A DNA stretch of 64,000 bases from positions 173,428 to 237,427 of the forward strand of contig JAHISJ010000023.1 in assembly GCA_018818205.1 (NCBI GenBank), in the 5' to 3' direction. A program made the position numbers and the translations under genes. Shown here piece by piece: positions 5,539 to 37,306 of the stretch. The DNA comes from Patescibacteria group bacterium (GTDB lineage: Bacteria > Patescibacteriota > JABMPQ01 > JAHIRA01). Each line of letters begins with the position of its first letter. Position 1 is the first letter of the stretch. The notes beneath the pieces were generated by a model, which was given only the letters and a program-made list of their open reading frames with translations, had not been told where the DNA came from and did no database searches.

Positions 5539-6231
5539 ATGCCAGAGTCAATAATTAGGCTTAGAGACATTTCTAAAGTATACGAAGAAGACATCGCAGC
5601 ACTCTGCGATGTGAGTTTAGATGTGATGGAAAAAGACTTTGTGTCTATTGTGGGCAGAAGCGGATCAGGAAAAACAACGCTCATTAAGCTTTTAATCGGT
5701 GAAGAAAAGCCAACTGCAGGTGAAATCGTGATAAACGGTTGGGATTTATGTAACATTAAGTCACGAAAAATTCCTTACTTTAGGCGAGAAATCGGTGTTG
5801 TATTCCAAGATTTTAAACTACTCCAACAGAAAACCGTTGCAGAGAATATTGCTTTTGCGCTTATTGTACTTGGAACTCCAAGACAAGAAATTCATAAACG
5901 AGTGCCCGGAGTGCTTAGTCTTGTAGGCCTTTCAGGGAAGGGAACTCGGTTCCCAAATGAACTCTCCGGTGGTGAGCAGCAACGTGTTGCTATCGCACGA
6001 GCGTTTGTACACGAGCCAAAACTGTTATTAGCCGATGAGCTTACAGGGGACTTAGACGCCATTTACGCGTGGGAAATTATGGAGATACTTCTTAAAATTA
6101 ATAAGATGGGAACGACGGTACTTATTGCAACACACGACAAATCGATTGTTAATAGACTACAAAAACGAGTGGTTACTCTAGAAGACGGCACAATTATTAG
6201 AGACCATAAAAAGGGAAGGTACGTAATATAA
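5539..6231 (+). CDS. ftsE: Cell-division ABC transporter ATP-binding protein FtsE
   Basis: Walker [18 protein letters not shown] signature [14 protein letters not shown], Walker B LLLADE. The start abuts the prfB stop. Confidence 0.9.
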
Positions 6232-7189: not shown

Positions 7190-7744
7190 TTGTTCTCTTT
7201 TTTCTCTAGTTTGCAGGAGGAAATGATGCAAACATGGCGTGATGCCGAAGAACTTATTGTTGTCCATGCGGACATTATCCCTATTAGTGAAGAATTAGAA
7301 AAGCTTGTTGAGCTTATGAGTGGAGATGATTTTCATGACCGCATGTGCGGACTTGAAGGACATCCACTTAATTATAGTGGCTATTTGCAAATTGCTAATA
7401 ACGAATTTTTTGTTTCTGTGTGGAATCCGCATATTCACCCTAGAGATCGTGCATCACTTAAACTTCACCCCAAAGGAGCTTCGTTAAATGACCTTATGCG
7501 ACCCGATCTTGAAAAGAATGGCTATACACTGTCATTCTTCACTTTTGTCTTTGTTGACAGGGTTATGTGTATTGTTGGATATTGCAAAGAGGGTCCCTGG
7601 GAACACATTCCCACAGGTCAAGTTGAATTTGACCCACGGATTTCAGTTGGTATGTCAAAGCAAGAACACTTGCAGAAAACATTTGAAATCCTTTCGTTTC
7701 AGGGGAAAACATTTCCTTGGAGCCTTACTTACTCTCGTAGGTAA
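7190..7744 (+). CDS. Hypothetical protein
   Basis: A 184-aa ORF with no recognisable motif. Coding potential is assessed only from ORF length and context. Confidence 0.35.
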   Translation: MFSFFSSLQEEMMQTWRDAEELIVVHADIIPISEELEKLVELMSGDDFHDRMCGLEGHPLNYSGYLQIANNEFFVSVWNPHIHPRDRASLKLHPKGASLNDLMRPDLEKNGYTLSFFTFVFVDRVMCIVGYCKEGPWEHIPTGQVEFDPRISVGMSKQEHLQKTFEILSFQGKTFPWSLTYSRR

Positions 7745-7853
7745 ACAGATTTTTTTATGAAAATTATTACAGCCCAATAAGCACGTTGCTTGTGGGCTTT
7801 TTTGTTTGTATTGAAAATAATTTTGAATATGATATTATAATCACCACTACTGT

Positions 7854-7927
7854 TCGGGACTCGTCTAACGGTAGGACGCAAGATTCTGGCTCTTGTAATC
7901 GGGGTTCGATTCCCTGGTCCCGAACCA
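7854..7927 (+). tRNA. tRNA-Gln (anticodon CUG)
   Basis: Cloverleaf: acceptor tcgggac / gtcccga with U1:A72, a D-arm with GG, anticodon stem caaga / tcttg with loop ttCTGgc, T-arm cgggg-ttcgatt-ccctg, discriminator A, and an encoded CCA. Confidence 0.8.
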
Positions 7928-7956
7928 TGCTATTCTATTCAAAAAATAAGTCGATA

Positions 7957-7981
7957 AACAGGCATTGTGCTTGTTTTTTTC
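7957..7981 (+). terminator. Putative Rho-independent terminator after tRNA-Gln
   Basis: Stem acaggca / tgcttgt (one G:U pair) followed by a T7 run. Confidence 0.4.
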
Positions 7982-8136
7982 TACAAAAAAATACAGAATG
8001 TCGTAGACGTCTGGAATGAATAGAGTGATTGCTCAAACTGAATGTACAAAAAAAGATCGAGGCGTAGTATCAATTTATTTTTGCATTTATTGTTGATTTA
8101 ACTCACAATACATATATAAATAATAACTATATACAG

Positions 8137-8955
8137 ATGTACGTTATTCAAAACGGTAAACTCATCCAAAAAGAAGAAGCGTCAATCCCACTATATTCCA
8201 AGGCAAATTTCTTTGATTTTGCAGTGTATGACTCAATAAAGGTGGTGCAAGGAAAACCTTTTTTCCCTGAATTTCATGTAGATAGGCTTTTGGAATCTGC
8301 ACGTATTATTGATCTTGAACATCCATTCACAAAAAAAGAAATTGCAATATGGATACAGTTACTGATTGATAAAAATAAACTCAAGGATTCACTCATTCGG
8401 TTTTTGTTAATTGGAGCAGGGGATGAGCAAGAAGAGCCCACTCTTTTTATGTTTCCCGTTGGACTAACGTTTTATGATAGAAAATGGTATAAAAAAGGTG
8501 TAAAAGTCATTACGTATCATGGGGAAAGAATCGTACCGGACTCAAAAGCAAAGGATCTTCTTCTAAACTTTATTGCTTTAAGAGAAGCAAAGAAAAATGA
8601 TGCTATAGAAGCGTTACTTATAGATACGGATGGAAACATACGAGAGGGGACCAGGTCAAACTTTTTTGCAGTAAAGGGTAGCGTTCTTTATACCCCGCCG
8701 CTCACCGATGTACTAGAGGGGGTTACCCGAAAAATAGTAGTAGATAGTGCCAAAAAAGAAACTATTGAAGTGAAAGAAGAAAAAATACCATACGAGAAAC
8801 TAGATGAATTTGATGAATTTTTTGTCACGAGTACCAGTATGAACATTATGCCTATTGTAGAGATTGATGATAGAATCGTTGCCAGTGAGGTAGGACCAAT
8901 AACAAAAAGTCTTATTAAGTCGTTCAAGGAGTTCTGTAAATCTGAAGGAGGGTAG
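8137..8955 (+). CDS. Class IV (branched-chain / D-amino-acid) aminotransferase family protein
   Basis: 272 aa. The N-terminal pattern NGKLIQKEEASIPLYSKANFFDFAVYDSIKV and the overall length fit the fold-type IV PLP aminotransferases (IlvE/Dat/PabC). Confidence 0.7.
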   Translation: MYVIQNGKLIQKEEASIPLYSKANFFDFAVYDSIKVVQGKPFFPEFHVDRLLESARIIDLEHPFTKKEIAIWIQLLIDKNKLKDSLIRFLLIGAGDEQEEPTLFMFPVGLTFYDRKWYKKGVKVITYHGERIVPDSKAKDLLLNFIALREAKKNDAIEALLIDTDGNIREGTRSNFFAVKGSVLYTPPLTDVLEGVTRKIVVDSAKKETIEVKEEKIPYEKLDEFDEFFVTSTSMNIMPIVEIDDRIVASEVGPITKSLIKSFKEFCKSEGG

Positions 8956-9005
8956 TCCTTTTTCTATCAAAGTTCATATGGTATACTTTAGGTACAAATA
9001 TACAT

Positions 9006-9392
9006 ATGAACTCAGAAATACAGAAAGAATCAAGAAAAATCGAGTGGCGACAAATGATGATAGCGCAGTATGGAACTTTTGGTACTGTCGCTGGTGTTAT
9101 GATTGCCGCGCTGACGATTTATGCAAGCCTTGAAACAAAAAAAGACAAAGTATTAATTGGTAGTTTTTACCTCGAAGACTTACTTTTTATTGTATCGCTT
9201 GGATGTCTTGTAGTTTCGATTATTTTGATCCTTATGCTGATCAATCGTGAACGAGATTTGGCTTGGGGAACAAAGGATGCCAAACTCGAGGAGTTCAAAA
9301 AGAAGGAACCAAGATATCGTACATGGCTTATAGGTCTTATGTCTTTTGGGTTAATTACAATCTTTTTTCTGCTTACTGTTCATGTTTTATAA
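9006..9392 (+). CDS. Small membrane protein (3 predicted TM)
   Basis: Hydrophobic helices at residues ~25-45, 55-80 and 105-125. Confidence 0.4.
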   Translation: MNSEIQKESRKIEWRQMMIAQYGTFGTVAGVMIAALTIYASLETKKDKVLIGSFYLEDLLFIVSLGCLVVSIILILMLINRERDLAWGTKDAKLEEFKKKEPRYRTWLIGLMSFGLITIFFLLTVHVL

Positions 9393-9519
9393 TGTATGAA
9401 ACTAGTCTTTTCTACGCTAGGTTTGTAACCAGAAAGTACAGCACTTGATGTGAATGAGGCTGTGAAAAAACATATTATTGTGAAGCTCAATACATAGATA
9501 CTTATACAAGGGAATAGGC

Positions 9520-10551
9520 ATGCAGAGTCCAGGCACAAAAAATATTTCAAAGAAACCAAAAAGTGGCTTCTTAAGACTGTTCTTTTTAGATCAAAAACAC
9601 TTCTCAAAGACAAAGGAACTTATTTTAGACAATGCAAAGGCAGACTTTGATTATATTATTCGCATAGTATTTGCTGTAATAGTGATAAGCCTGGGCATGC
9701 TTATTGATTCCACTGCAGTGGTCATTGGCGGCATGCTCATTGCACCACTGTTTTGGCCAATCTTTGGATTTGCTATTGGAATTGTTGAAGGAAAATCAAA
9801 AGTTGTAACAAAATCTTTTTTTACCTTGCTTAAAAGTTTGCTGATTGTTGTAGGCATAGCAATTGTCATAGGGCTTATTGCTCCTGCACATATTTTAGAA
9901 AGCCAAGAATTTGTTTCTCAAACGACACCAACACTCTTTGATTTACTGATTGGGCTTGCTTCAGGCTTTCTTGGTGCTTTTATTGTGTCTCATCCAAAAA
10001 TATCATCGAGCTTCGCGGGAGTTGTGATTGCCGCTGCCATTGTTCCTCCTTTGGCAGCTGTAGGGATTGCACTTGCTAAAGGTGATATAGATTCTTTTGG
10101 TAAAGCACTCCTTCTTTCTTTAGCAAGTCTCATAGCTATAACTTTTTCTGCTTCTGTGCTCTTTTACATTTCTCACGTAAAAACAAAAGGGTTTAAGCAG
10201 ATCTTTAAAACATACAAAGCAAGCATTGTATGGTTTGCAGTACTACTTATTATTGTCATTATTCCACTTATTCTCTTTACGAATCAGATTATTAAACATA
10301 CACGACAAGAAAGAGTAATTACAGAGGTTGTCACGAGCAAATTAGTGGACACTACTCTTGATACTGTCGTTCTCACAGAGCGGAATGACATCTTAACGGT
10401 CAAGGTAACAGTGCATAGTAAAGATGAAATAACGGACAGTGAGATTCAGGATATTGCACACGCATTATCAAAAGAATTGGAAGAATCTATTGTTTTGCAT
10501 GTAAACACTATTCCAGTAATCCAAAAAACGGAAGTGGTTAATTATGAGTAG
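9520..10551 (+). CDS. Polytopic membrane protein (DUF389-like)
   Basis: The first ~230 aa are glycine-rich TM segments. A soluble C-terminal domain follows. Confidence 0.5.
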   Translation: MQSPGTKNISKKPKSGFLRLFFLDQKHFSKTKELILDNAKADFDYIIRIVFAVIVISLGMLIDSTAVVIGGMLIAPLFWPIFGFAIGIVEGKSKVVTKSFFTLLKSLLIVVGIAIVIGLIAPAHILESQEFVSQTTPTLFDLLIGLASGFLGAFIVSHPKISSSFAGVVIAAAIVPPLAAVGIALAKGDIDSFGKALLLSLASLIAITFSASVLFYISHVKTKGFKQIFKTYKASIVWFAVLLIIVIIPLILFTNQIIKHTRQERVITEVVTSKLVDTTLDTVVLTERNDILTVKVTVHSKDEITDSEIQDIAHALSKELEESIVLHVNTIPVIQKTEVVNYE

Positions 10552-13540: not shown

Positions 13541-16136
13541 GCATTATATGAAAGAGCAGATCTATTTTAATCACAAAAAGGCTCAATTTTGGCCTCATGC
13601 CAGGCTGGTAAGGCTCGTTAGAACCCGCGTTTTTAGCATTCCACTCGTTGTATTTGTATACGGCTACGGAACACTTTCTATACTCTACTTCTTGATCTAT
13701 TTTATCAGGCTTATTCCTGACATTCCTATACTCTCAGACATTCCTTTCTCAAATACCATGACAGGATATGCAAGTATTGGAATAGCACTTTCATTCTTGC
13801 TTGCATCGCTGCACATATACTACAAAGCATATGTAGAGCAGCCTGCTCCCAAATTTACCGCCGAGCAGGTAACAGAAATAATACAAAAGGGAGGAAGAGT
13901 CAATCTCGCTGATTTTGCTTCAGTTCCAGTGCTCCTTACAATAGACTTAGCGTTTAAAAGGAGTCATGCAACGCAAAAAGGTTTTATTGAGGCACGTGAA
14001 ATATATGTTGCCATGACTAAGGAAGATCGGGGAAGATTCATTATTAATAGGCTTGGCTTTTTTAGAGATGATTTTATCAAGGAGATGGATGCCTATTACA
14101 AGAGCCAAGGTAAAAACTATGTTTCGGAAATTGATGTCACTTATTTATTTGCAAAAGCATTGGAAGTAGCAGCTATAGAAAAGCATCCCAAAATTTTAGT
14201 AAGTGATATTTTAGCCGCTTTGTCTGAGATAGAGCCGTTTATGCAAGAGCTTCTCTTTTCCAGAAATATTAAAGTTGAGGATGTGCTCAATATTGTCTAT
14301 TGGCAAACCACCAATGAAATCTATGATCAAGAAAAGAAATTTGATCCGGATAATCCCAAACTGACCGGTGGTATAGGCAAGGATTGGTCAATGGGATACG
14401 CACTGGCATTAAACCAGTTTGCCTATGATATGACCGAGATTGTTGCTAGGCAGCAAACACCCATTCATTTGATTGGAAGGTCGCGCGAGACGCAAGAAAT
14501 GGAGAAGATTCTTGTGCGGGCATCTAAGCATAACGTTCTTTTGGTTGGACCATCAGGGGTGGGGAAGTCATCTATCGCGCTCAATTTTGCGCGTAGAGTA
14601 CTCTATGGACAAACATATCCTGCCCTCGCAAACAGAAAGATCATGCAGCTTAACATTGATTACATTCTTGCTGGCGCAGAAACTCCTGGAGCAATTATTG
14701 AACGGCTCAGCGCAGTGCTTAACGATGCGGTGCGGGCTGGAAATATTGTCCTCTACATGAACAACATCCAATCACTTTTTGCAGGTGGTGGCTCTAAAGT
14801 TGGTGCGGTTGATGCCTCTGATGTTCTTATCCCGTATCTTGAAAACCCGGAACTTTATTTTGTTGCGACAACAACAACCAGTGCCTACCATCAATATATT
14901 GAATCAAAAACAGGAGTTGCCGATAAATTTGAGCGGATTGATGTAGAAGAACCAGATTACTCGGCTACGATTAGAATTCTGGAGGATATTCTTCATTGGC
15001 TAGAACCTGCTTACAAGGTGACAGTGACCTATAATGCACTTCAAAAAATCGTAGAACTTTCTGATAGGTTTATTTACAACAAATATTTTCCTGAAAAGGC
15101 AATCGATTTGCTGAATGAACTTGTTGTTTTTGTAAAATCACAAGGACGGGATATTATCTTCCCTGAGGATGTAGAGCAGACGATTCAGATGAAGACAAAA
15201 GTACCTATTGGTGAGGGAGAAACAGTAGAAAAAGAACGATTACTCAATTTGGAAGATTATTTGCATAAACGAGTTATTGGGCAAAATACAGCAATTAATG
15301 CAGTCGCAAACGCACTAAGACGTGCAAGGGCGGGAATCAGAAGTGGGCACAAGCCAATCGGTAGCTTTCTCTTTTTAGGACCAACCGGTGTTGGTAAGAC
15401 GGAAACATCTAAAGCTCTTGCCGATTCATACTTTGGGTCAGAAGACAAAATGATTCGGTTTGATATGAGTGAGTACCAGGACATCTCTGGACTTCACAGG
15501 CTACTTGGTGCGCCTCCAGGCACTCCACAGGCTGAATCGGGGGGTCAACTCACCAATGCGGTTAGAGACAATCCTTTTTCGCTTATTCTGTTTGATGAGA
15601 TAGAAAAGGCCGAACCAAATATCTTAAACATTTTTCTTCAACTCCTTGATGAAGGGTGGGTTACCGATTCGCTGGGAAGAAAAGTCAAGTTTAATAATTC
15701 CATTATTATTGCGACATCAAATGCGGGTGCGGAATATTTACGACAGCTTATACAAGAGGGGACACCCGAAGATGAGATTAGAGATAAACTACTAAACTAT
15801 CTTCAAGAGCAACATCTTTTTAGGCCAGAATTTTTAAATCGTTTTACCGCTGTTGTTAACTTTAATCCGCTCACAACCGACCAAATAGTTACCATTACTC
15901 ACATGATGGTAGAAAAGCTTATCTCGAGGCTCGATGAAGAAAAAGGAATATTCCTTACTGTCACAGAACCTGCCGTTCAGAAACTTGCAGAACTGGGATA
16001 TGATCCTCAACTTGGTGCTCGTCCAATTCAGAGAGTCTTGCAAGAAAAAGTAGAGAACTTCCTTGCTAAGAAAATGCTTTCAGAAGAGATTAAACGGGGG
16101 AGTTCACTGACGTTTGATGTAGATGATATTGAGTAA
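13530..16136 (+). CDS. Membrane-anchored Clp/Hsp100-type AAA+ ATPase (ClpC/ClpA-like, two ATPase domains)
   Basis: N-terminal TM helices. D1 Walker A LVGPSGVGKSSIA. D2 Walker A FLFLGPTGVGKTETSKALA, Walker B LILFDEIEKA, sensor IIIATSNAG, and the C-terminal D2-small domain. Confidence 0.85.
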   Translation: MEDKHYMKEQIYFNHKKAQFWPHARLVRLVRTRVFSIPLVVFVYGYGTLSILYFLIYFIRLIPDIPILSDIPFSNTMTGYASIGIALSFLLASLHIYYKAYVEQPAPKFTAEQVTEIIQKGGRVNLADFASVPVLLTIDLAFKRSHATQKGFIEAREIYVAMTKEDRGRFIINRLGFFRDDFIKEMDAYYKSQGKNYVSEIDVTYLFAKALEVAAIEKHPKILVSDILAALSEIEPFMQELLFSRNIKVEDVLNIVYWQTTNEIYDQEKKFDPDNPKLTGGIGKDWSMGYALALNQFAYDMTEIVARQQTPIHLIGRSRETQEMEKILVRASKHNVLLVGPSGVGKSSIALNFARRVLYGQTYPALANRKIMQLNIDYILAGAETPGAIIERLSAVLNDAVRAGNIVLYMNNIQSLFAGGGSKVGAVDASDVLIPYLENPELYFVATTTTSAYHQYIESKTGVADKFERIDVEEPDYSATIRILEDILHWLEPAYKVTVTYNALQKIVELSDRFIYNKYFPEKAIDLLNELVVFVKSQGRDIIFPEDVEQTIQMKTKVPIGEGETVEKERLLNLEDYLHKRVIGQNTAINAVANALRRARAGIRSGHKPIGSFLFLGPTGVGKTETSKALADSYFGSEDKMIRFDMSEYQDISGLHRLLGAPPGTPQAESGGQLTNAVRDNPFSLILFDEIEKAEPNILNIFLQLLDEGWVTDSLGRKVKFNNSIIIATSNAGAEYLRQLIQEGTPEDEIRDKLLNYLQEQHLFRPEFLNRFTAVVNFNPLTTDQIVTITHMMVEKLISRLDEEKGIFLTVTEPAVQKLAELGYDPQLGARPIQRVLQEKVENFLAKKMLSEEIKRGSSLTFDVDDIE

Positions 16137-16182
16137 TAAAGGTTATTTTAATAAATTTCTTATTTTCGTCACAATTTAATAT

Positions 16183-18162
16183 ATGAACGAAGGTTCTCAC
16201 TTCCTCGATCAAAAATATCGTGGATTACGTACCTCACAGCCCGTTGAGCATGAAAAAGCCAGAAAAAAAAGAAGCGGCGAAAAGGTTTCAGAAAAACCGG
16301 TAGAAAAGATTGCCGACTTTCTCTCCGTCCTTGAGCGTACCCACCTGGGACACAATGATAACCCCCTGGTCTTTGATCGCATCAAGAACTACTATCACAA
16401 AGAGCACGTCATTAAACCGGAGGACATCCCTCAGCACTACTGGAACCAGCAAGCCGGAATCATGATCAGAGAAGGTCGTGGGGCAGACATGGCGCAAGCG
16501 GGAGTAGAAAAAGAAACGTTTGTCGACAAAGATGGCAAGGAACACACTAATTATCATTTTCCCGAAGACTTAAGAGAACAAAAAATTGAAATCCTGCGAA
16601 ACAACCAAGAAAGAAGTCTTGATTTGTGGGTAAACTACTTAACCTCCGATGACGCGCTCTACCCGATGTGGGCTAAATACTGGGCTTTCCAATCCGTTTT
16701 GGGTATGGGCAAATTTGAAAAAATTCAGATTGAAGGAGAAGAAGATGAACAAAGGCTGGGGAAAGCCAGATTCCAAAAAAGAACCAAAGACACTGTCTCT
16801 TCCTTTCCCTATCTAAACCCGAGAGCTCTCGCCCAAACTATTGGGATCATGTCAGAAAGAATTGCGGAAAAACAAAAGCCCAAAAAAGAACGACAGCCTA
16901 TAAAAAATGTCAGTGCGCAGCTTGCAGACCCCGAGTTTCAAAAGCTTCTATCAACTGAGAGCTTCTCAAAACTTTACGCGCAGTTTCTTTTTGAGATGCC
17001 GGAATATTCTACGGAGGGACTCGAAGAAACGAGAGGAGAATGGAAAAAATATCCTCAAGGCTCTGATCCTAAAAAGCTTGTTGAATCTCTTGAAAGCTAT
17101 CCACTCGAATGGTGTACGGTGAATCTCGGTACCGCCGAAGAGCAGCTTAAGGGTGGTGATTTTTATGTCTACTACTCATATGATGAAGGCGGTAATTCAA
17201 AAATTCCGAGGATTGCTATTAGAATGCTTGGACAAAAGATAGCTGAACCTCCCAGAGGCATTGCTCCTGACCAAAGCATTGATCCCTATATTGGTCCCGT
17301 GCTAGAAAAGAAGATGGGAGCATTTGGACAAGAAGGAGAACTGTATAAGAAGAGAGCTGGAGACATGGAAATACTCACCCAGATAGAAGAGAAGACCAAA
17401 GCGGGTATTTTCAACCAGCAAGAAGACCAAAATTTTATAAACCATCTCAAGGTTCTCTACGAGATTGACCGGTCTATGCAAGGCTTTGGTTTTCGAAAAG
17501 ACCCAAGGATCAGGGAACTAAGAGAGCAAAGAAATCCCGAAGAAGATATGCTAATCATTTTTAACTGTACCCCAGAGGAAATTGCGAGAGCTTTCGAGCA
17601 AATCACCCCCGATACAAAAGCCTACATCGGGCCACTGACTAAAAATATCTTCCACAAACTGCCACAAGATCTCGAACATATCTACATTGAGTTTCCTGAA
17701 CAAAAAATTCGTAAAACAGAGATTGAAATTGGCGAAAAATCCAAGGAAGAGCTCATAAAGGAACTGCTGGAAGCGGACATTAAGACTCCGAAAGAAGCGC
17801 TAGATATGATTAAATGCTCAGACTTTAAAACCCTCAAAATCCGAAAAAACGTAACTCTGGTCAGATTGAGTGTCAAAAATTTGGGATTTGAAAAGAATAC
17901 TGCCATCGATGATATTTATCAAAGAGCACAAGAACTGGGCCTTACGCTAAGCCCAGCTGAAGTTGGACCGCATTATCGGCTTGAATACCGTGATCAGCCG
18001 ATAGGTGAGTGGGTAACTGTTGGCATGAAACAAATAGGTGGCTTGAGTGTTTTTAGTGTGGGGCGTTCCAGTGGCAGGGAGTGTTTGTATAACCAAGTTA
18101 CCAATAGTACGTGGCATCCGATTCGTGAGTTTGTGTTTTGCCTTTGCAAGAATGAATCTTAG
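16183..18162 (+). CDS. Large hypothetical protein (659 aa), compositionally distinct
   Basis: A long uninterrupted ORF with noticeably higher GC and C-ending codons (ccc, ccg, ggc, acc) than its neighbours. No recognisable catalytic motif. Confidence 0.5.
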   Translation: MNEGSHFLDQKYRGLRTSQPVEHEKARKKRSGEKVSEKPVEKIADFLSVLERTHLGHNDNPLVFDRIKNYYHKEHVIKPEDIPQHYWNQQAGIMIREGRGADMAQAGVEKETFVDKDGKEHTNYHFPEDLREQKIEILRNNQERSLDLWVNYLTSDDALYPMWAKYWAFQSVLGMGKFEKIQIEGEEDEQRLGKARFQKRTKDTVSSFPYLNPRALAQTIGIMSERIAEKQKPKKERQPIKNVSAQLADPEFQKLLSTESFSKLYAQFLFEMPEYSTEGLEETRGEWKKYPQGSDPKKLVESLESYPLEWCTVNLGTAEEQLKGGDFYVYYSYDEGGNSKIPRIAIRMLGQKIAEPPRGIAPDQSIDPYIGPVLEKKMGAFGQEGELYKKRAGDMEILTQIEEKTKAGIFNQQEDQNFINHLKVLYEIDRSMQGFGFRKDPRIRELREQRNPEEDMLIIFNCTPEEIARAFEQITPDTKAYIGPLTKNIFHKLPQDLEHIYIEFPEQKIRKTEIEIGEKSKEELIKELLEADIKTPKEALDMIKCSDFKTLKIRKNVTLVRLSVKNLGFEKNTAIDDIYQRAQELGLTLSPAEVGPHYRLEYRDQPIGEWVTVGMKQIGGLSVFSVGRSSGRECLYNQVTNSTWHPIREFVFCLCKNES

Positions 18163-18175: not shown

Positions 18176-18895
18176 TTAAATGTTCTTGCGAAGTTCTATT
18201 ACCTTCTTAAACGCTTCAAACGCTATTTGTTTTGAAAATTTTGATTTCCCCGATCTTCTTTCAATAAACGTAATAGGAATCTCCGCAATGCGGAGATTTT
18301 TTTGGTGAAAAAGATGCACGAGTTCGATTTGAAACCCGTAGCCTTCTGTTTGTATGGATGCTAAGTCGATTGTCCTAAGCTTTGATGCTCTAATACATCT
18401 AAATCCTGTCGTAAGATCAGTGAAGGGAATATCTAGAACCTTCCTGGCATAATAAATTCCAGCACGCGAAATACATTGTCTTACCGTATTCCAGTTTTTT
18501 ACTGATGCATGAGGAATATATCTAGAGCCTAAAACAAGGTCGTTCTCTTGCATAGCTCTTAGAAATCTAGGAATAGATCTGGGATTGTGTGAAAGGTCAG
18601 CGTCTATCTCAAATATAAAGGCAGCATTTTCTTGAAGTGCCTTAGAAAATCCAAATCGATATGCTGACCCAAGCCCTTTTTTGCTTTTCCGATTATATGT
18701 ATAAATCGATGCATATTTTTTTTGAAGTGCACGTGCAATTTCACCGGTGCCATCAGGTGAATTATCATCAATAATAAGGATTTTTTCATTGATCCTTGCT
18801 TTTTTGCATACAGAAAGGATCTCTTCTATAAGGAGCGGAAGAGATTCTTTTTCATTGTATGTGGGGATGATGATGTAGACTAGTTCGTTTGGCAC
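18176..18895 (-). CDS. Family-2 glycosyltransferase, dolichol/polyprenol-phosphate mannosyltransferase (DPM1)-like
   Basis: IIIPTYNEKESLPLL ... IIDDNSPDGTGEIA ... EIDADLSHNP ... and a C-terminus IAEIPITFIERRSGKSKFS, matching Dpm1/GtrB-type GT2 enzymes. Confidence 0.85.
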   Translation of the reverse strand: MPNELVYIIIPTYNEKESLPLLIEEILSVCKKARINEKILIIDDNSPDGTGEIARALQKKYASIYTYNRKSKKGLGSAYRFGFSKALQENAAFIFEIDADLSHNPRSIPRFLRAMQENDLVLGSRYIPHASVKNWNTVRQCISRAGIYYARKVLDIPFTDLTTGFRCIRASKLRTIDLASIQTEGYGFQIELVHLFHQKNLRIAEIPITFIERRSGKSKFSKQIAFEAFKKVIELRKNI

Positions 18896-19066
18896 TGCAC
18901 AATATTTAAGGTATGAATAAGAAATTATATCAAATAGAGAGTAAATAAGTACAGAGATTATTAACTACTGAATTTCTTCCCTTGAATAAAGGCTTAAATC
19001 TTGCTATCCTGAGCTGGTAGATAAGGAATCCCTACAGACTGGAAGGATATCGGGAAGTAGAAAAAA

Positions 19067-19290
19067 GGGGCCCCCGAATAATTCCGATTGTTTGGGAAGG
19101 TGGAACACTATGGAAGTCGGAGCGAATCCCGAAGGTTTTACGTAGGGGTTCAGCTAGACTGGAATAGTAAGAATTGGGGCCCCCGAAAAGTTCCTACTTT
19201 TTGGGGAAGAGGAGGAACAATATGTAAGCTGGAGTGGGTTCCGAAGGCTTTGCGAAGGGACACACGTAAGCTGGAATATTGTTCCGACGT
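19067..19290 (+). repeat. Two tandem, degenerate ~110-bp direct repeats (plus an upstream partial copy from ~18990) abutting tRNA-Ser
   Basis: Copy A 19067-19176 and copy B 19177-19290 both begin GGGGCCCCCGAA and are ~70% identical. Both contain a tRNA T-arm-like block (GGAGCGAATCCCGAAGG / GGAGTGGGTTCCGAAGG) and end in GCTGGAATA. Confidence 0.6.
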
Positions 19291-19379
19291 GGAGAGATGG
19301 CAGAGTGGACTAATGCGCTGCTCTCGAAAAGCAGTTCTCGCTTTGTTGCGAGACGTGGGTTCGAATCCCACTCTCTCCG
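19291..19379 (+). tRNA. tRNA-Ser (anticodon CGA)
   Basis: Acceptor ggagaga / tctctcc, D-arm with GG, anticodon stem ctgct / agcag with loop ctCGAaa, a long variable arm ttctcgctttgttgcgagac, T-arm gtggg-ttcgaat-cccac, discriminator G. CCA is not encoded. Confidence 0.85.
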
Positions 19380-19456
19380 GATTTTTGTATGAGTTTTTTG
19401 GAAAACTTTATATGTGAGGTGGGCATGGTTCCCATATTCTAATAAAATGAACGATT

Positions 19457-20908
19457 ATGTTCGAACAATCATTCAAAAATATCGACGATATTCTACATAC
19501 CGATTCCGGATGCGGGACCGAGCTTGATTATGTTGAGCAAACTTCTTGGATTCTCTTTTTAAAATACCTCGATGATTTGGAAGAAACAAAGAAAACCGAG
19601 GCGGAACTTTCGGGGAAAAAATATGAATATATTTTATCGCCAAAATATCGATGGAACACTTGGGCTTGCCCAAAAAAAGATGATGGAAAGATTGACCATA
19701 ACAAAGCTCTTGGTGGGGATGATTTACGTGATTTTGTAAATAACAATCTTTTTCCTTATCTTAAAAAATTAAAAGCCGAGGATTCTGACACGATTGAATA
19801 CAAGATCGGTGAGATTTTTAGTGAACTAAAAAACAAAATTACAAGCGGTCACAAGTTGCGAGAAATTTTAACTATTGTTGATGGAATGCACTTTAGACTG
19901 TATGAAGAAAAGCACGAACTTTCTCATCTCTATGAAGCGAAAATTGCTAAAATGGGTAACGCTGGTCGAAACGGCGGTGAATACTATACACCTCGTCCGC
20001 TGATTAAGACTATCGTGAAGGTGGTTGACCCAAAAATCGGGGAAACCATTTATGATGGTGCCTGTGGAAGCGCCGGGTTTTTAGTTGAAGCATATAACTA
20101 TCTAACACAAAATCCGGAGAAACTGTCTTCGGGTCAAATGGAGACCTTGCAAAACAAAACCTTTTACGGAAAAGAAATCAAATCACTAGCTTACATCATC
20201 GGCATTATGAACATGATTTTGCATGGCATTGAAGCTCCAAACATCAGACACACAAACACGCTGGCCGAAAATATCAACGATATTCAAGAAAAAGATCGAT
20301 ATGATATTGTTTTGGCTAATCCGCCTTTTGGCGCCGGTATCGGCCGTGAAATACAACAAAATTTCCCCATCAAAACCGGAGAAACCGCTTTTCTTTTTCT
20401 CCAACATTTCATTAAGATTCTAAAAGCCGGTGGTAGAGCGGGAATAGTTATAAAAAATACTTTTTTATCCAATACCGACAACGCCTCCGTATCTTTACGC
20501 AAACTTCTTCTGGAAAATTGCAACCTCCACACCGTCCTTGATTTACCCGGGGGTGCTTTTCAGGGCGCAGGTGTAAAAACCGTCGTTCTCTTTTTTGAAA
20601 AAGGCGCGCCGACCAAGAAAGTTTGGTTTTATCAACTGAACCTTGATCGTAATCTTGGTAAAGGAAATCCTTTAAACGAAGCTGATTTGACGGAGTTTGT
20701 GAAATTGCAAAAAAGCAAAGCGGAAAGTGAGAATTCTTGGAGTGTGAGTGTGAAGGATATTGATCAAGAGACATTTGATTTGTCTGTGAAGAATCCTAAT
20801 AAGAAGAATGAGGAGGTGTTGCGGGAGCCGGAGGAGATTTTGAAGGAGATGAGGGATTTGGATGAAGAGAGTAAAAAAATACTAGATTCTATGCAAGAAA
20901 AATTATGA
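19457..20908 (+). CDS. hsdM: Type I restriction-modification system, DNA methyltransferase subunit M
   Basis: HsdM N-terminal domain, AdoMet motif I DGACGSAGFLV, catalytic motif IV IVLANPPFG. Length 483 aa. Confidence 0.9.
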   Translation: MFEQSFKNIDDILHTDSGCGTELDYVEQTSWILFLKYLDDLEETKKTEAELSGKKYEYILSPKYRWNTWACPKKDDGKIDHNKALGGDDLRDFVNNNLFPYLKKLKAEDSDTIEYKIGEIFSELKNKITSGHKLREILTIVDGMHFRLYEEKHELSHLYEAKIAKMGNAGRNGGEYYTPRPLIKTIVKVVDPKIGETIYDGACGSAGFLVEAYNYLTQNPEKLSSGQMETLQNKTFYGKEIKSLAYIIGIMNMILHGIEAPNIRHTNTLAENINDIQEKDRYDIVLANPPFGAGIGREIQQNFPIKTGETAFLFLQHFIKILKAGGRAGIVIKNTFLSNTDNASVSLRKLLLENCNLHTVLDLPGGAFQGAGVKTVVLFFEKGAPTKKVWFYQLNLDRNLGKGNPLNEADLTEFVKLQKSKAESENSWSVSVKDIDQETFDLSVKNPNKKNEEVLREPEEILKEMRDLDEESKKILDSMQEKL

Positions 20909-21786
20909 TATCTGAAGAGCAAATACAGAATTGGTCACGAGCACTAAGTGAAATAGAGAACGAAAAATGTATTTCTACAGTGGCTACAATCAAAAATATT
21001 TTGCAAGAAAAGTTTGGAGATTCAGTAGATATTTTTCTTCAGGGCTCATATAGGAATAGTACAAATGTGAGACAAGATAGCGACGTAGATATCATTGTTT
21101 GTTACAATAAGGCATATTTTCCTGATCTGTCTGGACTTTCAGATCAAGAAATAGAACGTCATAATTCAATACTAATACCTTCTGAATACTCATTTTCACA
21201 ATTTAAGAGTGATGTTGAAGATTTAATGAGAAAAAAATTCCCACTTCAAACAGAAAGAAAAAATAAGTGTGTATTTGTAAAAGGAGATGTACATAGAGTA
21301 AATGCAGATATTGTACCTTGTTTTATTTTAAAGCGTTTTCGCCCTCCTTATTATGTTGAAGCCGAGGGAATTCAATTTTTTTCTGACAAAGAAGAAGAAA
21401 TAAAAAGTTTTCCAAGACAACACTACGAAAACGGAGCGGACAAAAACGAAGCAACTGATGCGTCGTTTAAATCGGTAGTTAGAATTTTAAAAAATTCTAG
21501 AAATATGCTTATTGATAAGAATGAAATTGACGAAAAACTTATGCCATCTTTTTTCTTAGAATGCTTAATATGGAATGTTCCAAATATCCAATTTAACACT
21601 TTTTCAGAAAAGAGATGTGTAAATAGCATTTTGAAAGTTTTGTGGGCAGACATGGATAGGATAGAGGTTGTGGAATCTTACACCGAAATCAGTAATTTAA
21701 TGCTTTTATTTCAAAAGCAAAAGGCACAAACCCCTGAAAGTGTTAAACTTTTTTTAAGTGAAGCTTATAACTTAATGAATTCATGA
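20905..21786 (+). CDS. Polymerase-beta-superfamily nucleotidyltransferase, cGAS/DncV-like (CD-NTase / SMODS-like) candidate
   Basis: Start ATG overlaps the hsdM stop (ATGA). Core GSYRNSTNVRQDSDVDIIV (GS ... DxD), a third acidic residue in GDVHRVNADIVPCF ~75 aa later, and a ~150-aa helical C-terminal half. Total 293 aa. This layout resembles CD-NTases rather than 100-aa MNT antitoxins. Confidence 0.55.
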   Translation: MISEEQIQNWSRALSEIENEKCISTVATIKNILQEKFGDSVDIFLQGSYRNSTNVRQDSDVDIIVCYNKAYFPDLSGLSDQEIERHNSILIPSEYSFSQFKSDVEDLMRKKFPLQTERKNKCVFVKGDVHRVNADIVPCFILKRFRPPYYVEAEGIQFFSDKEEEIKSFPRQHYENGADKNEATDASFKSVVRILKNSRNMLIDKNEIDEKLMPSFFLECLIWNVPNIQFNTFSEKRCVNSILKVLWADMDRIEVVESYTEISNLMLLFQKQKAQTPESVKLFLSEAYNLMNS

Positions 21787-21795
21787 AAAATTTCA

Positions 21796-22251
21796 ATGCA
21801 AAATGATATTTTATTAAAGGCTCTTGATGAGCGATACAAATCTATCCACATAATCCGTGAAAGGATTCAGACTGTTGTGCTATGGATTTTGGGGCTTTTA
21901 ATTACTGGGTCAGCATGGGTTTACCAGTCAGATGTTTATTTTGATTTACTTGGTATGTTGTCATTGTTTCTTGTGATTATTTGTATCTGGATATCTATTT
22001 GGAAATTTTATTTTTATGATCTAGAAAAGGGTTTTAATAGTCAAAGAAAAATTGCTGCTAAAATTGAAGAAGCCCTTGGTTTTTATAAGAAAAAACATTT
22101 TTCAGAGAGTGAAGAATCGATGTATCCAATTGAATGGAAAAATTCTGGGAAAAAAAATTGCGAGGGAAAATTTATGAGAAATACTTACTACTTGATTGCA
22201 CTGGGTTTCATTCTATCAATGCTTGCAATTTTTTCCCACACATGTATTTAG
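21796..22251 (+). CDS. Small membrane protein with N-terminal TM hairpin (SLATT-like candidate effector)
   Basis: 151 aa. Adjacent helices VVLWILGLLITGSAWVY and LLGMLSLFLVIICIWISIW, then a charged helical segment and a C-terminal hydrophobic helix YYLIALGFILSMLAIF. It starts 10 nt after the NTase stop and ends 5 nt before hsdS. Confidence 0.45.
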   Translation: MQNDILLKALDERYKSIHIIRERIQTVVLWILGLLITGSAWVYQSDVYFDLLGMLSLFLVIICIWISIWKFYFYDLEKGFNSQRKIAAKIEEALGFYKKKHFSESEESMYPIEWKNSGKKNCEGKFMRNTYYLIALGFILSMLAIFSHTCI

Positions 22252-22256
22252 ATATT

Positions 22257-23324
22257 ATGACTAAAAGAATTCAAAAAAATAACTGGCAAACAAAAAAACT
22301 TGGCGATATTTTAAAATTAGAATATGGTAAACCTTTGCCAAAAACTGAAAGATCTTCCGATGGGAAATATCCTGTTTATGGTGCAAATGGGATTAAGGAT
22401 TTTTCCAACAAGTTTTATTTTGATAAGCCAAGCATTGTTGTTGGCCGAAAAGGATCAGCAGGAAAGCTTCATTTAGTAGAGAAAAATTTTTGGCCATTGG
22501 ACGTGACTTATTTTGTAACTTTTGATGATAAAAAATATGATCTCAATTTTCTTTTTCATCTTTTGAGTGATCTTGAACTATCGAAATTAGCAAAAGGTGT
22601 AAAACCCGGAATAAATCGTAATGATGTTTACTCGAGAGAGGTCAATATTCCACCTCTCCCCGAACAACGCCGCATCGTAAAAATTCTAGATGAAATTTTT
22701 GAGAAAACAGCGAAAGCAAAAGAAAATTCTGAAAAAAATCTGCAAAATGCCAAAGAACTTTTTGAATCGTATTTGCAGAGTGTTTTTGAGAATCCAGGGG
22801 AAGATTGGAAAAAGAAAAGATTTGATAAAATTTGTGTTCTTCAAAGAGGTTTCGATTTGCCAACTCGTTTAAGAAATATAGGAAAATTTCCGCTTGTTAG
22901 CTCTAATGGAATTACTGACCAAATTGACCTCTGGAAAGTAAAAGCCCCTGGTGTTGTTACTGGAAGAAGTGGAACAATTGGCAATGTTCACTATATTGAA
23001 AAAGATTTTTGGCCTCTAAATACAGCACTTTACATCAAAGAGTTTTATGGGAATAATGAAAGGTTTATTTATTATTTATTGAAGCAATTTGATTTAAGTA
23101 AATACAGTTCAGGGGCAGGTGTCCCAACTTTAAATCGAAATAATGTTCATGATGAAATGGTTTTATATCCCAGATCGTTAAACGAGCAAAAATACATAGT
23201 CAAAAAACTTGATGGTCTTTCAGCCAAAACTAAAAAACTAGAAACAATTTACCAAAAAAAGTTATCAGACTTAGAAGAACTGAAAAAATCAGTTCTAAAA
23301 CGTGCCTTCAGTGGCAAGTTATAA
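22257..23324 (+). CDS. hsdS: Type I restriction-modification system, specificity subunit S
   Basis: Two target-recognition-domain repeats (…VYGANGIKDFSNKFYFDKPSIVVGRKGSAGK… and …LVSSNGITDQIDLWKVKAPGVVTGRSGTIGN…). Each is followed by a conserved coiled-coil spacer (LPEQRRIVKILDEIF / LNEQKYIVKKLDGL). ATG at 22257 chosen; the longer track ORF from 22134 would overlap the upstream gene. Confidence 0.8.
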   Translation: MTKRIQKNNWQTKKLGDILKLEYGKPLPKTERSSDGKYPVYGANGIKDFSNKFYFDKPSIVVGRKGSAGKLHLVEKNFWPLDVTYFVTFDDKKYDLNFLFHLLSDLELSKLAKGVKPGINRNDVYSREVNIPPLPEQRRIVKILDEIFEKTAKAKENSEKNLQNAKELFESYLQSVFENPGEDWKKKRFDKICVLQRGFDLPTRLRNIGKFPLVSSNGITDQIDLWKVKAPGVVTGRSGTIGNVHYIEKDFWPLNTALYIKEFYGNNERFIYYLLKQFDLSKYSSGAGVPTLNRNNVHDEMVLYPRSLNEQKYIVKKLDGLSAKTKKLETIYQKKLSDLEELKKSVLKRAFSGKL

Positions 23325-23336
23325 CAAACTAAATTT

Positions 23337-25664
23337 ATGAACGAATCAGAAACAAGAGCCGAATATATTGACCCAAAGCTTAAACAAGCTGGTTGGGGTG
23401 AGGTTGAGGGGTCGAAAATAATGCGGGAATATCGGATTACCGAAGGAAGAATTCAAGCCGGCGGTACAAGGTCCAAACCGGAGATTGCGGATTATGTTTT
23501 GGTTTATAAGAATCGTAAAATTGGAATAATTGAAGCAAAAGCTGTAGATCTGGAAGTTGGTGAGGGGGTAGCGCAAGCCAAGGCATACGCCGAGAAAATG
23601 GATATAGATTATTCTTATGCGACAAACGGCAAAGAGATTTATCAGATTTCCATGAAAACAGGTAAGGAAAAAAACGTGAGTAGCTTTCCCACTCCAGATG
23701 AACTATGGAATAAAACTTACGCCGACTGGAATGAATGGAAGGAAAAATTTGATGGAGTTTTGTTTGAAGATGGAGGAACGGGGAAAAGACCCAGGTATTA
23801 TCAGGAAATCGCGACAAATAATGTTTTGGAATCGATTACTGAAGAAAAAAAGAGAATCTTATTAACATTAGCAACCGGAACCGGAAAAACGTTTATTGCT
23901 TTTCAAATTGTTTGGAAACTTTTTCAAACCCGTTGGAATCTGAATCGTGATGGGGCCAGGAGGCCAAGAGTTTTGTTTTTAGCTGACAGGAATATTTTAG
24001 CTGATCAAGCTATGAATAATTTTGCGGCTTTTAAAGAAGATGAAAAAGTGAGAATCAACCCGCTTGATATCAGAAAAAAGGGTGGAGTACCTATGACCGG
24101 CAGTATCTTTTTTACCATCTTTCAAACTTTCATGAGCGGGCAAAACGGCATGCCATATTTTGGTGATTATCCACCTGATTTCTTTGATTTGATTATCATT
24201 GATGAATGTCACAGAGGAGGGGCAAATGATGAAAGTAATTGGCGTGGAATTTTAGAATATTTTTCTCCGGCGGTACAACTTGGACTTACCGCAACACCAA
24301 AGCGAAAAAATAATGTCGACACGTATAGATACTTTGGAGAACCGGTTTACATTTATTCACTCAAGGAAGGAATCAACGACGGGTTTTTAACACCTTTTAA
24401 AATCAAAAGAATCAAAACAACGTTAGATGATTATGTTTACACTTCCGATGATCAGATTATTGAAGGAGAAGTTGAAGAAGGAAAAATTTACGAAGAGCCG
24501 GATTTTAATAGAATTATTGAAATTAAGGAACGTGAAGCAAAGAGAGCGCGGGTATTAATGAATGAAATAAATCAAAATGAAAAAACTATTATCTTTTGCG
24601 CGACACAAGATCATGCCTTGGCGGTTCGTGACTTGGTAAGTCAAATGAAAAATAGTAAGGACCCATTTTATTGCGTTCGGGTGACGGCAAATGATGGGGC
24701 AAGAGGAGATCAGTCCTTACGTGATTTTCAAGATAATGAAAAAATAATTCCAACAATTCTCACAACTTCTCAAAAACTTTCCACAGGTGTAGACGCGCGC
24801 AATATTAGAAATATCGTTTTAATGCGTCCAATCAATTCGATCATAGAGTTTAAACAGATTATTGGACGTGGGACGAGACTTTTTGACGGTAAAGAATATT
24901 TTACGATCTATGATTTTGTTGATGCATACAAACATTTTTCTGACCCCGAATGGGATGGTGAGCCGATAGACGAGACAACCGAAAAGGAACCGCGTGAGAT
25001 GAAAGAACAGAAGGAAATAAAAGAGTCAAACGCTTCACTCGAAAAGCCGGAGGAACCGAAGAAGAAACTGAAAATTAAGTTAAGCGATGGCAAAGTGAGA
25101 GAGATAAAACACATGATTTCCACTTCTTTCTGGGGTGCTGATGGCAAACCGATTTCCATTCAAGAGTTCATGGATAATATGTTTGGTACCATGCCCGAGT
25201 TTTTTAAAAGTGAAGAAGAGCTCAGAAAAATTTGGTCAAATCCTAAAACGCGTAAAGCTTTTTTAGAGAAAATTGCCGAAAAAGGTTTTGGCAAAGATGA
25301 GCTAGAAACTCTGCAAAAAATGATTGATGCTGAGCAAAGTGACTTGTTTGATGTATTGTTGTATATCTCGTTCTTAACCAAGCCAATTTCAAGGACTCAA
25401 AGAGTAAACCAATCAAAAAATAAGATGTTTAAAGGTCTAGATGATAAACAAAAAGAGTTTCTGGATTTTGTTTTATTAAAATATGAAGAAAAAGGAGTTG
25501 AAGAACTTGATGAAGATAAATTACCGGTTTTGTTGAATTTGAAATATCACGCTATAGCAAATGCAGAAGAATCTCTTGGCGATGTAGCGCGAATTCGGTC
25601 TATGTTTTTTTCCTCTCAGAAAAATTTGTACTCTGAGGTAGAAAAGGAATATACATATAAATAA
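23337..25664 (+). CDS. hsdR: Type I restriction enzyme, endonuclease/translocase subunit R (compact, 775 aa)
   Basis: N-terminal Mrr/PD-(D/E)xK-like nuclease region (ADYVLVY...IGIIEAKA). SF2 helicase motif I LATGTGKTF and motif II LIIIDECHRG, with later helicase motifs (TATPKR, ILTTSQKLSTGVDA, QIIGRGTR). Confidence 0.85.
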   Translation: MNESETRAEYIDPKLKQAGWGEVEGSKIMREYRITEGRIQAGGTRSKPEIADYVLVYKNRKIGIIEAKAVDLEVGEGVAQAKAYAEKMDIDYSYATNGKEIYQISMKTGKEKNVSSFPTPDELWNKTYADWNEWKEKFDGVLFEDGGTGKRPRYYQEIATNNVLESITEEKKRILLTLATGTGKTFIAFQIVWKLFQTRWNLNRDGARRPRVLFLADRNILADQAMNNFAAFKEDEKVRINPLDIRKKGGVPMTGSIFFTIFQTFMSGQNGMPYFGDYPPDFFDLIIIDECHRGGANDESNWRGILEYFSPAVQLGLTATPKRKNNVDTYRYFGEPVYIYSLKEGINDGFLTPFKIKRIKTTLDDYVYTSDDQIIEGEVEEGKIYEEPDFNRIIEIKEREAKRARVLMNEINQNEKTIIFCATQDHALAVRDLVSQMKNSKDPFYCVRVTANDGARGDQSLRDFQDNEKIIPTILTTSQKLSTGVDARNIRNIVLMRPINSIIEFKQIIGRGTRLFDGKEYFTIYDFVDAYKHFSDPEWDGEPIDETTEKEPREMKEQKEIKESNASLEKPEEPKKKLKIKLSDGKVREIKHMISTSFWGADGKPISIQEFMDNMFGTMPEFFKSEEELRKIWSNPKTRKAFLEKIAEKGFGKDELETLQKMIDAEQSDLFDVLLYISFLTKPISRTQRVNQSKNKMFKGLDDKQKEFLDFVLLKYEEKGVEELDEDKLPVLLNLKYHAIANAEESLGDVARIRSMFFSSQKNLYSEVEKEYTYK

Positions 25665-36870: not shown

Positions 36871-36932
36871 CAATTGCCAAACAATATATAAAACCGTTAC
36901 AATAGAGACAAGAAAAACTAACGTAAAATTTA

Positions 36933-37277: not shown

Positions 37278-37306
37278 TCCTTTATTGATAACAGTAACAT
37301 AAAGAT

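Follow-up and report, generated by a model that had tools for sequence, protein, structure and literature searches.

What are the repeats that precede the tRNA-Ser(CGA) gene in this genome, and how did they come to lie there? The stretch of DNA analysed here, referred to as the window, is 64,000 nucleotides of contig JAHISJ010000023.1 from a bacterium of the Patescibacteria group; its sample is metagenome assembly ENA ERZ27247128, in which it is part of a 318-kb contig, and loci from other contigs are labelled L002, L100-L101, and L106-L115. The closest relatives of the proteins encoded in the window are from Patescibacteria/Parcubacteria, at only about 60 % identity. The element in question is present in the window as two adjacent copies, unit A (19067..19175, plus strand) and unit B (19176..19289, plus strand). 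From the sequence of the window alone, it had been proposed (the original prediction) that these are decayed repeats carrying tRNA-Ser-like fragments, and that they are relics of tRNA duplication or integration, an array of tRNA-like small RNAs, or a structured leader processed together with the tRNA. Comparison with other contigs identified a family of structured units, with discrete boundaries, that is found exclusively at the ends of tRNA genes. On balance these units are probably, if only just, a lineage-specific, non-autonomous, and selfish mobile element that lands at tRNA termini.

The original prediction was right that this region is non-coding, repeated, and worth folding. Two full copies are present where they had been placed, and a MAFFT alignment recovers the blocks that they share, GGGGCCCCCGAA, GGAACA.TATG, CCGAAGG, and CTGGAATA; in a repeat search of the window, A and B are 72–79 % identical over two ungapped blocks. 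The 12-mer head GGGGCCCCCGAA occurs exactly twice in the 64 kb, against 0.01 occurrences expected. Tandem Repeats Finder, run on the window, reported nothing at this repeat because the copies are too diverged and differ by insertions and deletions. Using a covariance model of the family, built from 18 units, unit B scores 135.8 bits (E 1e-28) and unit A 89.5 bits (E 3e-18). Unit B, proximal to the tRNA, is a full-length B-type member; unit A, distal to it, belongs to the A-type subfamily and has a degenerate, internal-type tail, ..AATAGTAAGAATT, where GTTCCGACG would stand. Copy B had been thought to run straight into the tRNA, and the two are indeed adjacent, but a single base (T, 19290) intervenes between unit B and tRNA-Ser(CGA) (19291..19379, plus strand; ARAGORN; Rfam tRNA model 59.3 bits), the gene that the array abuts and which is itself outside the repeat.

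A partial third copy had also been described, at 18990..19066 (plus strand). By eye, this segment has GAATCCC and AGACTGGAA in common with unit A, corresponding to the 3′ part of a unit only, but the family model gives it −1.4 bits (E 5.8, filters off) and its fold has a z-score of −0.63. It may be the decayed remnant of an older unit, a candidacy that is not statistically supported. The 109-aa open reading frame (ORF) at 19088-19417 is spurious, as originally suggested. It runs across both units and the tRNA, no gene is called there in the source assembly, and protein-database searches with the unit translations returned no real homologues, only two other spurious ORFs lying over units and tRNAs.

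The likeness to tRNA-Ser did not survive closer comparison. When A or B is aligned locally (Smith-Waterman) with the tRNA or with the tRNA reverse complement, 15–22 % of shuffled sequences do as well as the best alignments, and the segment said to resemble the T-arm covaries across the family with a different partner, namely the 3′ strand of helix P4. At this locus ARAGORN and the Rfam tRNA model detect only 19291-19379, and the units fold as two hairpins, not as a cloverleaf. Over the window units, Rfam gave no match at E up to 10 apart from the tRNA. Likewise, in 4.9 kb of L114 containing 13 units, only tRNAs and sub-threshold noise from plant microRNA hairpins were matched.

Units A and B fold alike on the plus strand, into an 11-bp hairpin (P1), a purine linker, and a long irregular hairpin. 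The fold of unit A has a z-score of −2.9 and that of unit B −5.2 (−49.7 kcal/mol); the reverse complements fold more weakly, and the differences between the stems of A and B are compensatory. In unit B the head GGGGCCCCC, with the palindrome GGGGNCCCC (19176..19184), is conserved at the 5′ end of nearly all units, and its 3′ half doubles as the 5′ strand of P1 (19181..19206, plus strand). This hairpin of 11 bp and a 4-nt loop has compensatory double changes in 7 of 11 pairs, with 96 % of cells paired. It is followed by the unpaired purine linker AAGAGGA (19207..19213, plus strand), which is near-invariant across units and reads GGAGG with the next bases, then by the long irregular hairpin P2-P5 (19214..19285, plus strand), an inverted repeat with purine-rich internal loops and the apical GAAGGCUUUGCGAA, and finally by the single-stranded tail GACG with the spacer T (19286..19290, plus strand). 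Helices 2-5 comprise 24 pairs, 14 of them with compensatory changes, and 92–100 % of their cells are paired.

Across the family, the folding and covariance analysis that had been called for confirmed this shared two-hairpin fold. In a model-based alignment, standard pairs occupy 96.6 % of cells, compared with 83.7 % in column shuffles (0 of 500 reach the observed value) and 35–48 % when the partners are slid by 1–3 columns. Changes on both sides are seen in 19 out of 30 pairs. An extension of P2, GGAAC/GUUCC, adds two further covarying pairs, bringing the total to 21 out of 35, and with P2 so extended only GACG and one base remain single-stranded between the long hairpin and the tRNA. There are 27 G.U pairs against 6 A.C, therefore the fold has been selected on the unit's own strand, as RNA or as single-stranded DNA, and not as duplex DNA. 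Conserved secondary structure on one strand is thus well supported. The P1 loop (UUC) and the linker (GAA) are candidate pseudoknot partners, but both sides are invariant and thus speak neither for nor against such pairing. The head palindrome is tentative as a genuine feature; three single compensatory variants keep its symmetry, but a slid control is nearly as good. The GGAGG of the linker resembles a Shine-Dalgarno sequence, although neither the AUG that follows nor its reading frame is conserved. An intrinsic terminator was also considered and rejected: neither strand of the units contains a terminator-like site, and no U-run follows P1 or the long hairpin.

The covariance model identified 21 full-length units at 51–138 bits, as well as fragments, on four contigs from two metagenomes, all Patescibacteria-like and together giving about 124 kb surveyed. 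Two units are in the window, two in L108, 14 in L114, and three in L115, the last two being the extended versions of L110 and L111, respectively. The units are about 114 nt in size and have a GC content of 0.48–0.58, forming islands in a genome of 0.38 GC. In a control of 700 kb of unrelated DNA chosen for the head motif, the best score was 18.5 bits. L108 is the one real instance among four matches in a metagenome pattern scan, those in L106, L107, and L109 being due to chance; it contains, in order, a remnant, unit X, unit Y, and tRNA-Ser(UGA), a different isoacceptor, with the same junction at unit Y as at unit B. Protein-database queries with unit translations returned two entries, P0121 and P0122, on two further contigs of the window's own sample. 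L110/L114 has a dozen tRNA genes interleaved with units on both strands, and L111/L115 has an array of units upstream of tRNA-Ser(GCU) and another unit abutting the 3′ end of tRNA-Tyr. The database 'proteins' themselves, P0121 (L114 10001-10543) and P0122 (L115 10001-10453), are reverse-strand translations of units and tRNAs. Searches with the other four open frames of the units found no further family loci.

A strict three-part pattern had no true instance in 185,579 species genomes, its four matches being chance occurrences in unrelated phyla. In viral contigs, a loose pattern of the head plus CCGAAGG gave 97 matches, where none of the 80 loci listed fits the family model, and a more specific pattern gave none. 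Two of the chance matches of the metagenome scan, both in human-gut contigs (L106 574-677 and L109 808-911), are copies of an unrelated GC-rich element that starts GGGGCCCCCGAAAAG and has hairpins and repeated GGGTGGCAACTTTTTG(A/G)GG blocks; it fits the search pattern, but the family model gives it only 16.8 bits.

The nearest relatives of the window locus were located by synteny, through homologues of the adjacent glycosyltransferase-family-2 (GT2) gene. L100 keeps the synteny of GT2 and tRNA-Ser(CGA) without a unit, having only a promoter just upstream of the tRNA, and the other near relative, L101, is also free of units. L100 is a distant relative (62 % protein identity) with flanks that cannot be aligned. 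Conservation in relatives had been suggested as a check, and its outcome is divided: the orthologous locus lacks the unit, but numerous other tRNA genes have it in a conserved and covarying form. As judged from the contigs in which it is found, the family appears to be specific to a small group of Patescibacteria, which are bacteria of the candidate phyla radiation (CPR).

The placement of the units is exact. Every full unit is in contact with a tRNA terminus or with the head of a further unit; none is found elsewhere in the surveyed sequence. At least one unit is present at 15 of the 18 tRNA genes, the three without being tRNA-Gln (which starts U1-A72), one tRNA-Arg, and tRNA-Thr. Read along its own strand, a unit runs from the head through P1, the linker, and the long hairpin to GTTCCGACG, after which come a single base and the first pair of the acceptor stem. 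This junction of GTTCCGACG plus 1 nt is seen at 15 out of 17 tRNA termini, in five loci and on both sides of tRNAs, with exceptions of +2 nt at tRNA-Phe and −2 nt at tRNA-Leu-UAA. A unit upstream of a tRNA shares its strand and one downstream is on the opposite strand, the same end always facing the tRNA, such that on the strand of the unit a cloverleaf, or a mirrored cloverleaf, follows directly 3′. For downstream units, the single spacer base is the discriminator, for example U73 of tRNA-Cys. As a prospective test, L110 was extended by 4 kb, which added two tRNAs, both with a unit in the predicted place and orientation.

Head-to-head pairs of units fill three inter-tRNA spacers exactly. Two of these pairs, between tRNA-Leu and tRNA-Val (L114 13220-13267) and between tRNA-Cys and tRNA-Leu (L114 17222-17268), have 47-nt AT-rich centres that are about 83 % identical. 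This suggests that a head-to-head pair is a fold-back composite of about 275 nt, the termini of which are the two tails; given the common 47-nt centre, what is copied may sometimes be larger than one unit. With regard to the 3′ ends of the tRNAs (compared in L114 9800-17462, L115 4587-10559, and window 7854-7927), CCA is not encoded in those that have a unit on the 3′ side. In tRNA-Gly(GCC), tRNA-Gly(CCC), tRNA-Thr, and tRNA-Gln, CCA is encoded and a 3′ unit is absent. For tRNA-Ser(CGA), CCA is absent in the window and present in the L100 orthologue.

The relations between copies do not follow their positions. Unit B is closest to unit Y of L108, beside tRNA-Ser(UGA) (94 %), and to the L110 unit beside tRNA-Gly(CCC) (92 %). 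Unit A is closest to L110 9268-9381 (80 %) and L110 6802-6916 (79 %), beside tRNA-Val, and is only about 75 % identical to B. Since A and B are therefore of different subfamilies and have their closest relatives elsewhere, the tandem pair did not arise by local duplication. The units beside tRNA-Arg and tRNA-Lys are 100 % identical, and this identity stops exactly at GGGG.. and ..GACG. In each of the seven arrays the tRNA-proximal unit has the best score, outer units being degraded or truncated, and remnants comparable to 18990-19066 precede the arrays in L108, L110, and L111. Relics of tRNA duplication, as one of the original readings had it, are not what is seen here, there being no tRNA likeness above chance and A and B not being each other's closest relatives. 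The integration half of that reading comes near to what is proposed below, the independent arrival of a discrete element, although not of tRNA relics.

Mobility itself, the copying intermediate, and the targeting rule are what we infer from these observations. In the mobile element that we favour, copying would be carried out by an enzyme encoded elsewhere, and landing in the spacers of tRNA operons would be safe, since the insert would be cut off the tRNA by RNase P and RNase Z, the enzymes that trim the RNA flanking tRNAs. The intermediate would be the structured sense strand, as RNA or as single-stranded DNA. Sense and antisense copies do not differ in the sequence of their loops and linker, which fits copying from common sources and not a function within the tRNA-sense transcript. 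Two forms of targeting can be envisaged. One is recognition of the base of the folded acceptor stem in single-stranded DNA, on either strand; a tRNA gene looks alike from both ends once either strand folds, and the mirrored placement therefore suggests that the acceptor-stem base is recognized in a single-stranded nucleic acid. In the other, a reverse transcriptase would join the 3′ end of the element RNA to the ends of mature tRNAs, either primed by the tRNA or by switching end-to-end between templates. The expected outcome is junctions at the ends of processed tRNAs, one base of spacer on the 5′ side, a precise tail junction, and ragged head junctions, all of which are observed. The more specific proposal, that this is a new bacterial mobile element homing to tRNA termini through folded RNA or single-stranded DNA, with its 3′ end joined one base from the acceptor stem, is tentative, and we would expect it to prove wrong more often than right. 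The tRNA-proximal sense copy may now supply the promoter of its tRNA.

Several results weigh against mobility. No transposase, HUH nuclease, or reverse transcriptase gene is present among the Pfam annotations of the surveyed contigs, and only a XerC/D-like recombinase is encoded close to one of the arrays. No polymorphism between empty and filled sites was observed, the second assembly, L002, being identical. Terminal inverted repeats are not evident; comparison of the first 30 nt with the reverse complement of the last 30 scores 3–7, against a shuffle mean of about 5. The head-to-head pairs, unlike single units, do have inverted termini in their tails. At 15 terminal units, the longest flank duplication is 0–1 nt, giving no sign of target-site duplication. 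Units internal to arrays never keep the GTTCCGACG tail and end in recurrent linkers or at variable points, so the simple model of a new copy landing between an old copy and the tRNA fails. The recurrent linkers are shared between separate contigs, type 1, GTATGARAAAATGGA, being found in three arrays and type 2, AAAACAAGAGAAT, in two (type 1 and 2 sites: L108 1859-1873 and 1979-1993; L110 10272-10286; L111 ~6128-6142; L110 6917-6930; L111 6310-6323). Identical copies could have been produced by gene conversion, and conserved unpaired loops and a conserved tRNA-proximal copy would fit a cellular function as well. The sample is also small and related, consisting of two metagenomes and possibly only two genomes.

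The main rival, which we regard as unlikely, is a cellular module of tRNA transcription units, in which a long hairpin 5 nt from the acceptor stem serves as a processing, stability, or insulation signal; head-to-head pairs would form a stem of the RNase III type, and a sense unit upstream would carry the tRNA promoter. The constant superiority of the tRNA-proximal copy and the high conservation of the unpaired loops and linker would be expected of such a module. The antisense units of L110/L114 lie inside a polycistronic tRNA transcript with a good upstream promoter and a downstream terminator, and the exact filling of three inter-tRNA spacers by head-to-head pairs, two of them with related centres, could also be functional. 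Within the unit there is a promoter candidate, with −35 TTGCGA and −10 near GGAATATT/TATTGT, although the spacing is poor. A TANNNT box (TATTGT/TAGTGT), spaced like that of the L100 promoter, is found 8 nt before the tRNA in five of six sense-upstream proximal units and in two of eight antisense units; this contrast is confounded with subfamily and is not significant. A module functioning in the tRNA-sense transcript would have complementary loops in its antisense copies, whereas the two classes do not differ in sequence or in the strand that bears the G.U pairs. Furthermore, the two nearest relatives do without the unit at the same tRNA, as do three tRNAs in the unit-bearing contigs, and neither the existence of two subfamilies, nor the decay of outer copies, nor 100 % identity between copies at unrelated tRNAs would be expected of a module of this kind. 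The structured leader processed with the tRNA, one of the original readings, could describe the fate of the RNA at the window locus, but it does not explain downstream copies on the opposite strand with the same end proximal to the tRNA.

Less probable again, and distinctly so, is that the units are stand-alone, trans-acting small RNAs, the 3′ ends of which are cut by RNase P at the tRNA or its mirror fold ('tRNA punctuation'), with the abutment as a maturation device and action through the purine linker and loops. Such RNAs would suit the structure, which forms on the strand of the unit itself and has G.U pairs like those of RNA and internal loops rich in purines; they would also suit the constant position of the units, immediately 5′ of a cloverleaf or mirror on that strand, and the GC-rich islands that the units form. 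Yet antisense transcription across tRNA genes would be required, there is no conserved promoter upstream of the head, where the flanks are unrelated, and more than 20 diverging and truncated copies are unusual for the gene of a trans-acting RNA. The array of tRNA-like small RNAs first suggested is correct as to strong structure and mistaken as to tRNA likeness. Very little probability is given to neutral, decaying local tandem duplication of the region upstream of tRNA-Ser or of tRNA-Ser fragments, which the data contradict. Two adjacent units and a candidate remnant, with outer copies more decayed, are what it would produce, but the substitutions between copies are overwhelmingly compensatory, A and B are of different subfamilies with closest relatives at other tRNAs and in another metagenome, and the tRNA likeness is at chance level. 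Least probable of all, close to negligible and likewise contradicted, is control of tRNA-Ser by a leader peptide or attenuator, or by a tandem aptamer resembling a riboswitch. On this view every unit would have GGAGG, AUG, and a tiny ORF, and tandem units recall glycine riboswitches; GGAGG is 6–7 nt before AUG in A, B, and unit Y of L108, and the short ORFs are MEVGANPEGFT* and MEAGAGSEGFAEEHA*. However, CUG replaces AUG in many units, with a compensating change across P2, AUG is missing in 7 out of 19 units, and B has AUG-UAA; frames end at different places and the stop is not conserved. Rfam gives no riboswitch at E below 10, no terminator follows the units, and tRNAs other than tRNA-Ser have the same element on their downstream side, in antisense orientation.

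Small interspersed repeats are common in bacteria, and the units resemble several known kinds. With miniature inverted-repeat transposable elements (MITEs), REP/BIME, Correia, RUP, and ERIC sequences, they share a size of about 100–150 bp, non-coding and multi-copy nature, hairpin formation, intergenic location, subfamilies, decayed copies, and, presumably, mobilization in trans. They differ in having neither terminal inverted repeats nor target-site duplications, and in being strictly at tRNA gene termini with nucleotide-level placement and fixed polarity; we know of no confinement to tRNA termini in those families, and the literature gave none either. The palindrome-associated elements derived from IS200/IS605 and moved by HUH (Y1) transposition are alike in lacking inverted repeats and duplications, in having sub-terminal hairpins and structure constrained on one strand, and in having one precise junction that is independent of sequence on the other side; with a single-stranded DNA intermediate, either strand of a tRNA gene could fold and so become a target. 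Elements of the IS608 type insert 3′ of their target. By contrast, the units have no conserved 4–5-nt target, since the tail flanks share only N and G/C-rich acceptor stems and the head flanks are unrelated, the flank that is specific in them adjoins the 3′ end of their structured strand, and their 70-nt hairpin is unlike the short ones of those elements. Neither TnpA (Y1) nor TnpB is among the Pfam annotations of the surveyed contigs. The family does not pass the tests that define MITEs and IS200/IS605 derivatives, and no Rfam family matches it.

Insertion guided by stem-loops is known from class C group II introns (at terminator stem-loops), from IS1111/IS110 elements and class C-attC introns (at integron attC sites), and from IS1397 (at REP sequences), and would explain the use of either side of the acceptor stem with mirrored orientation. 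Those elements are autonomous or ribozyme-bearing, 0.6–2 kb in size, and are not known to target tRNA genes. In Rfam, neither an intron nor a ribozyme matches the unit. Position- and orientation-specific integration beside tRNA genes as a safe haven likens the units to Ty3 and to TRE5/TRE3 of Dictyostelium; these are eukaryotic, autonomous elements of several kb, targeted by RNA polymerase III factors to between a few and about 100 bp from tRNA genes. Structured small RNAs directly abutting tRNAs are seen in plant tRNA-snoRNA (small nucleolar RNA) dicistrons, Nanoarchaeum tRNA-C/D sRNA (small RNA) transcripts, and mitochondrial tRNA punctuation, where they are released by tRNA-processing enzymes and are single-copy functional genes in one orientation, unlike the more than 20 copies, in both orientations and with decayed members, seen here. 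Finally, reverse transcriptases of the non-LTR (non-long-terminal-repeat) type start at the 3′ ends of structured RNAs and tRNAs and jump end-to-end between templates, aided by one non-templated base (10.1101/792986; PMC9925561). For the Mauriceville/Varkud retroplasmids and non-LTR template switching, the likeness is in the junctions expected, at mature tRNA ends with a one-base 5′ spacer. The differences are that no reverse transcriptase gene was found in the surveyed contigs, that there is no CCA at the 3′ junctions, and that these tRNAs are the genome's own working genes in operons, such that a further recombination step would be required.

No description of elements placed like these at tRNA termini was found in the literature. 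To our knowledge, there is no previous account of an element set against tRNA genes to the exact base, on either side of them and with a polarity that is fixed and mirrored. The family is of a known kind, that of small structured genomic repeats, with a real chance of a new targeting mechanism. If the units are mobile, their targeting would depend on reading either the folded gene or the processed end of a tRNA, by a mechanism that could be of use as a tool for site-specific insertion. If homing to tRNA termini is also correct, this would be the first prokaryotic counterpart of the tRNA-targeting retroelements, one that builds most of the inter-tRNA spacers of its host. The family also shows how the spacers of tRNA operons are built in streamlined CPR genomes. 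In practical terms, it is a source of spurious ORF calls (P0121, P0122, and the 109-aa ORF) and of contig breaks, and the covariance model now serves for annotation. L002 (SRR6514274), an independent assembly of the same organism that is identical over the region, stops inside unit B, at the equivalent of window ~19205, and the repeat family appears to break assemblies.

Divergent from tRNA-Ser(CGA), on the other side of the two units, is the GT2 gene (18176-18895, minus strand), which encodes a polyprenol-phosphate mannosyltransferase. Between it and a ClpB-like gene is a 659-aa ORF (window 16183-18162) without a family in Pfam, NCBIfam, or elsewhere; this ORF is an insertion in the lineage of the window, because ClpB directly adjoins the GT2 gene in L100 and L101. 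In L114, an 807-aa ORF (14563-16986) without a family or a relative of solved structure lies between two unit-bearing tRNA clusters, the first of which is flanked by a 310-aa cysteine-rich ORF (8640-9572) and the XerC/D-like tyrosine recombinase (7604-8542). The orphan proteins beside arrays (659 aa in the window, 807 aa and 310 aa in L114) have no family, no relative of solved structure, and no similarity to one another. Immediately 3′ of tRNA-Ser is a type I restriction-modification operon, with hsdM (19457-20908), hsdS (22134-23324), and hsdR (23337-25664), within which are a nucleotidyltransferase with a weak SMODS/CD-NTase-like match (20905-21786) and a membrane-like 151-aa ORF (21796-22251); this region, 19457-25664, looks like a defence island. 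Elsewhere in the window (600-64000, e.g. 35845-47040) and in L112 (198-8255), the metabolism encoded is fairly rich for a Patescibacteria-like genome, including de novo pyrimidine synthesis, glutamine synthetase, proline synthesis, fumarase, and phosphoenolpyruvate (PEP) carboxykinase.

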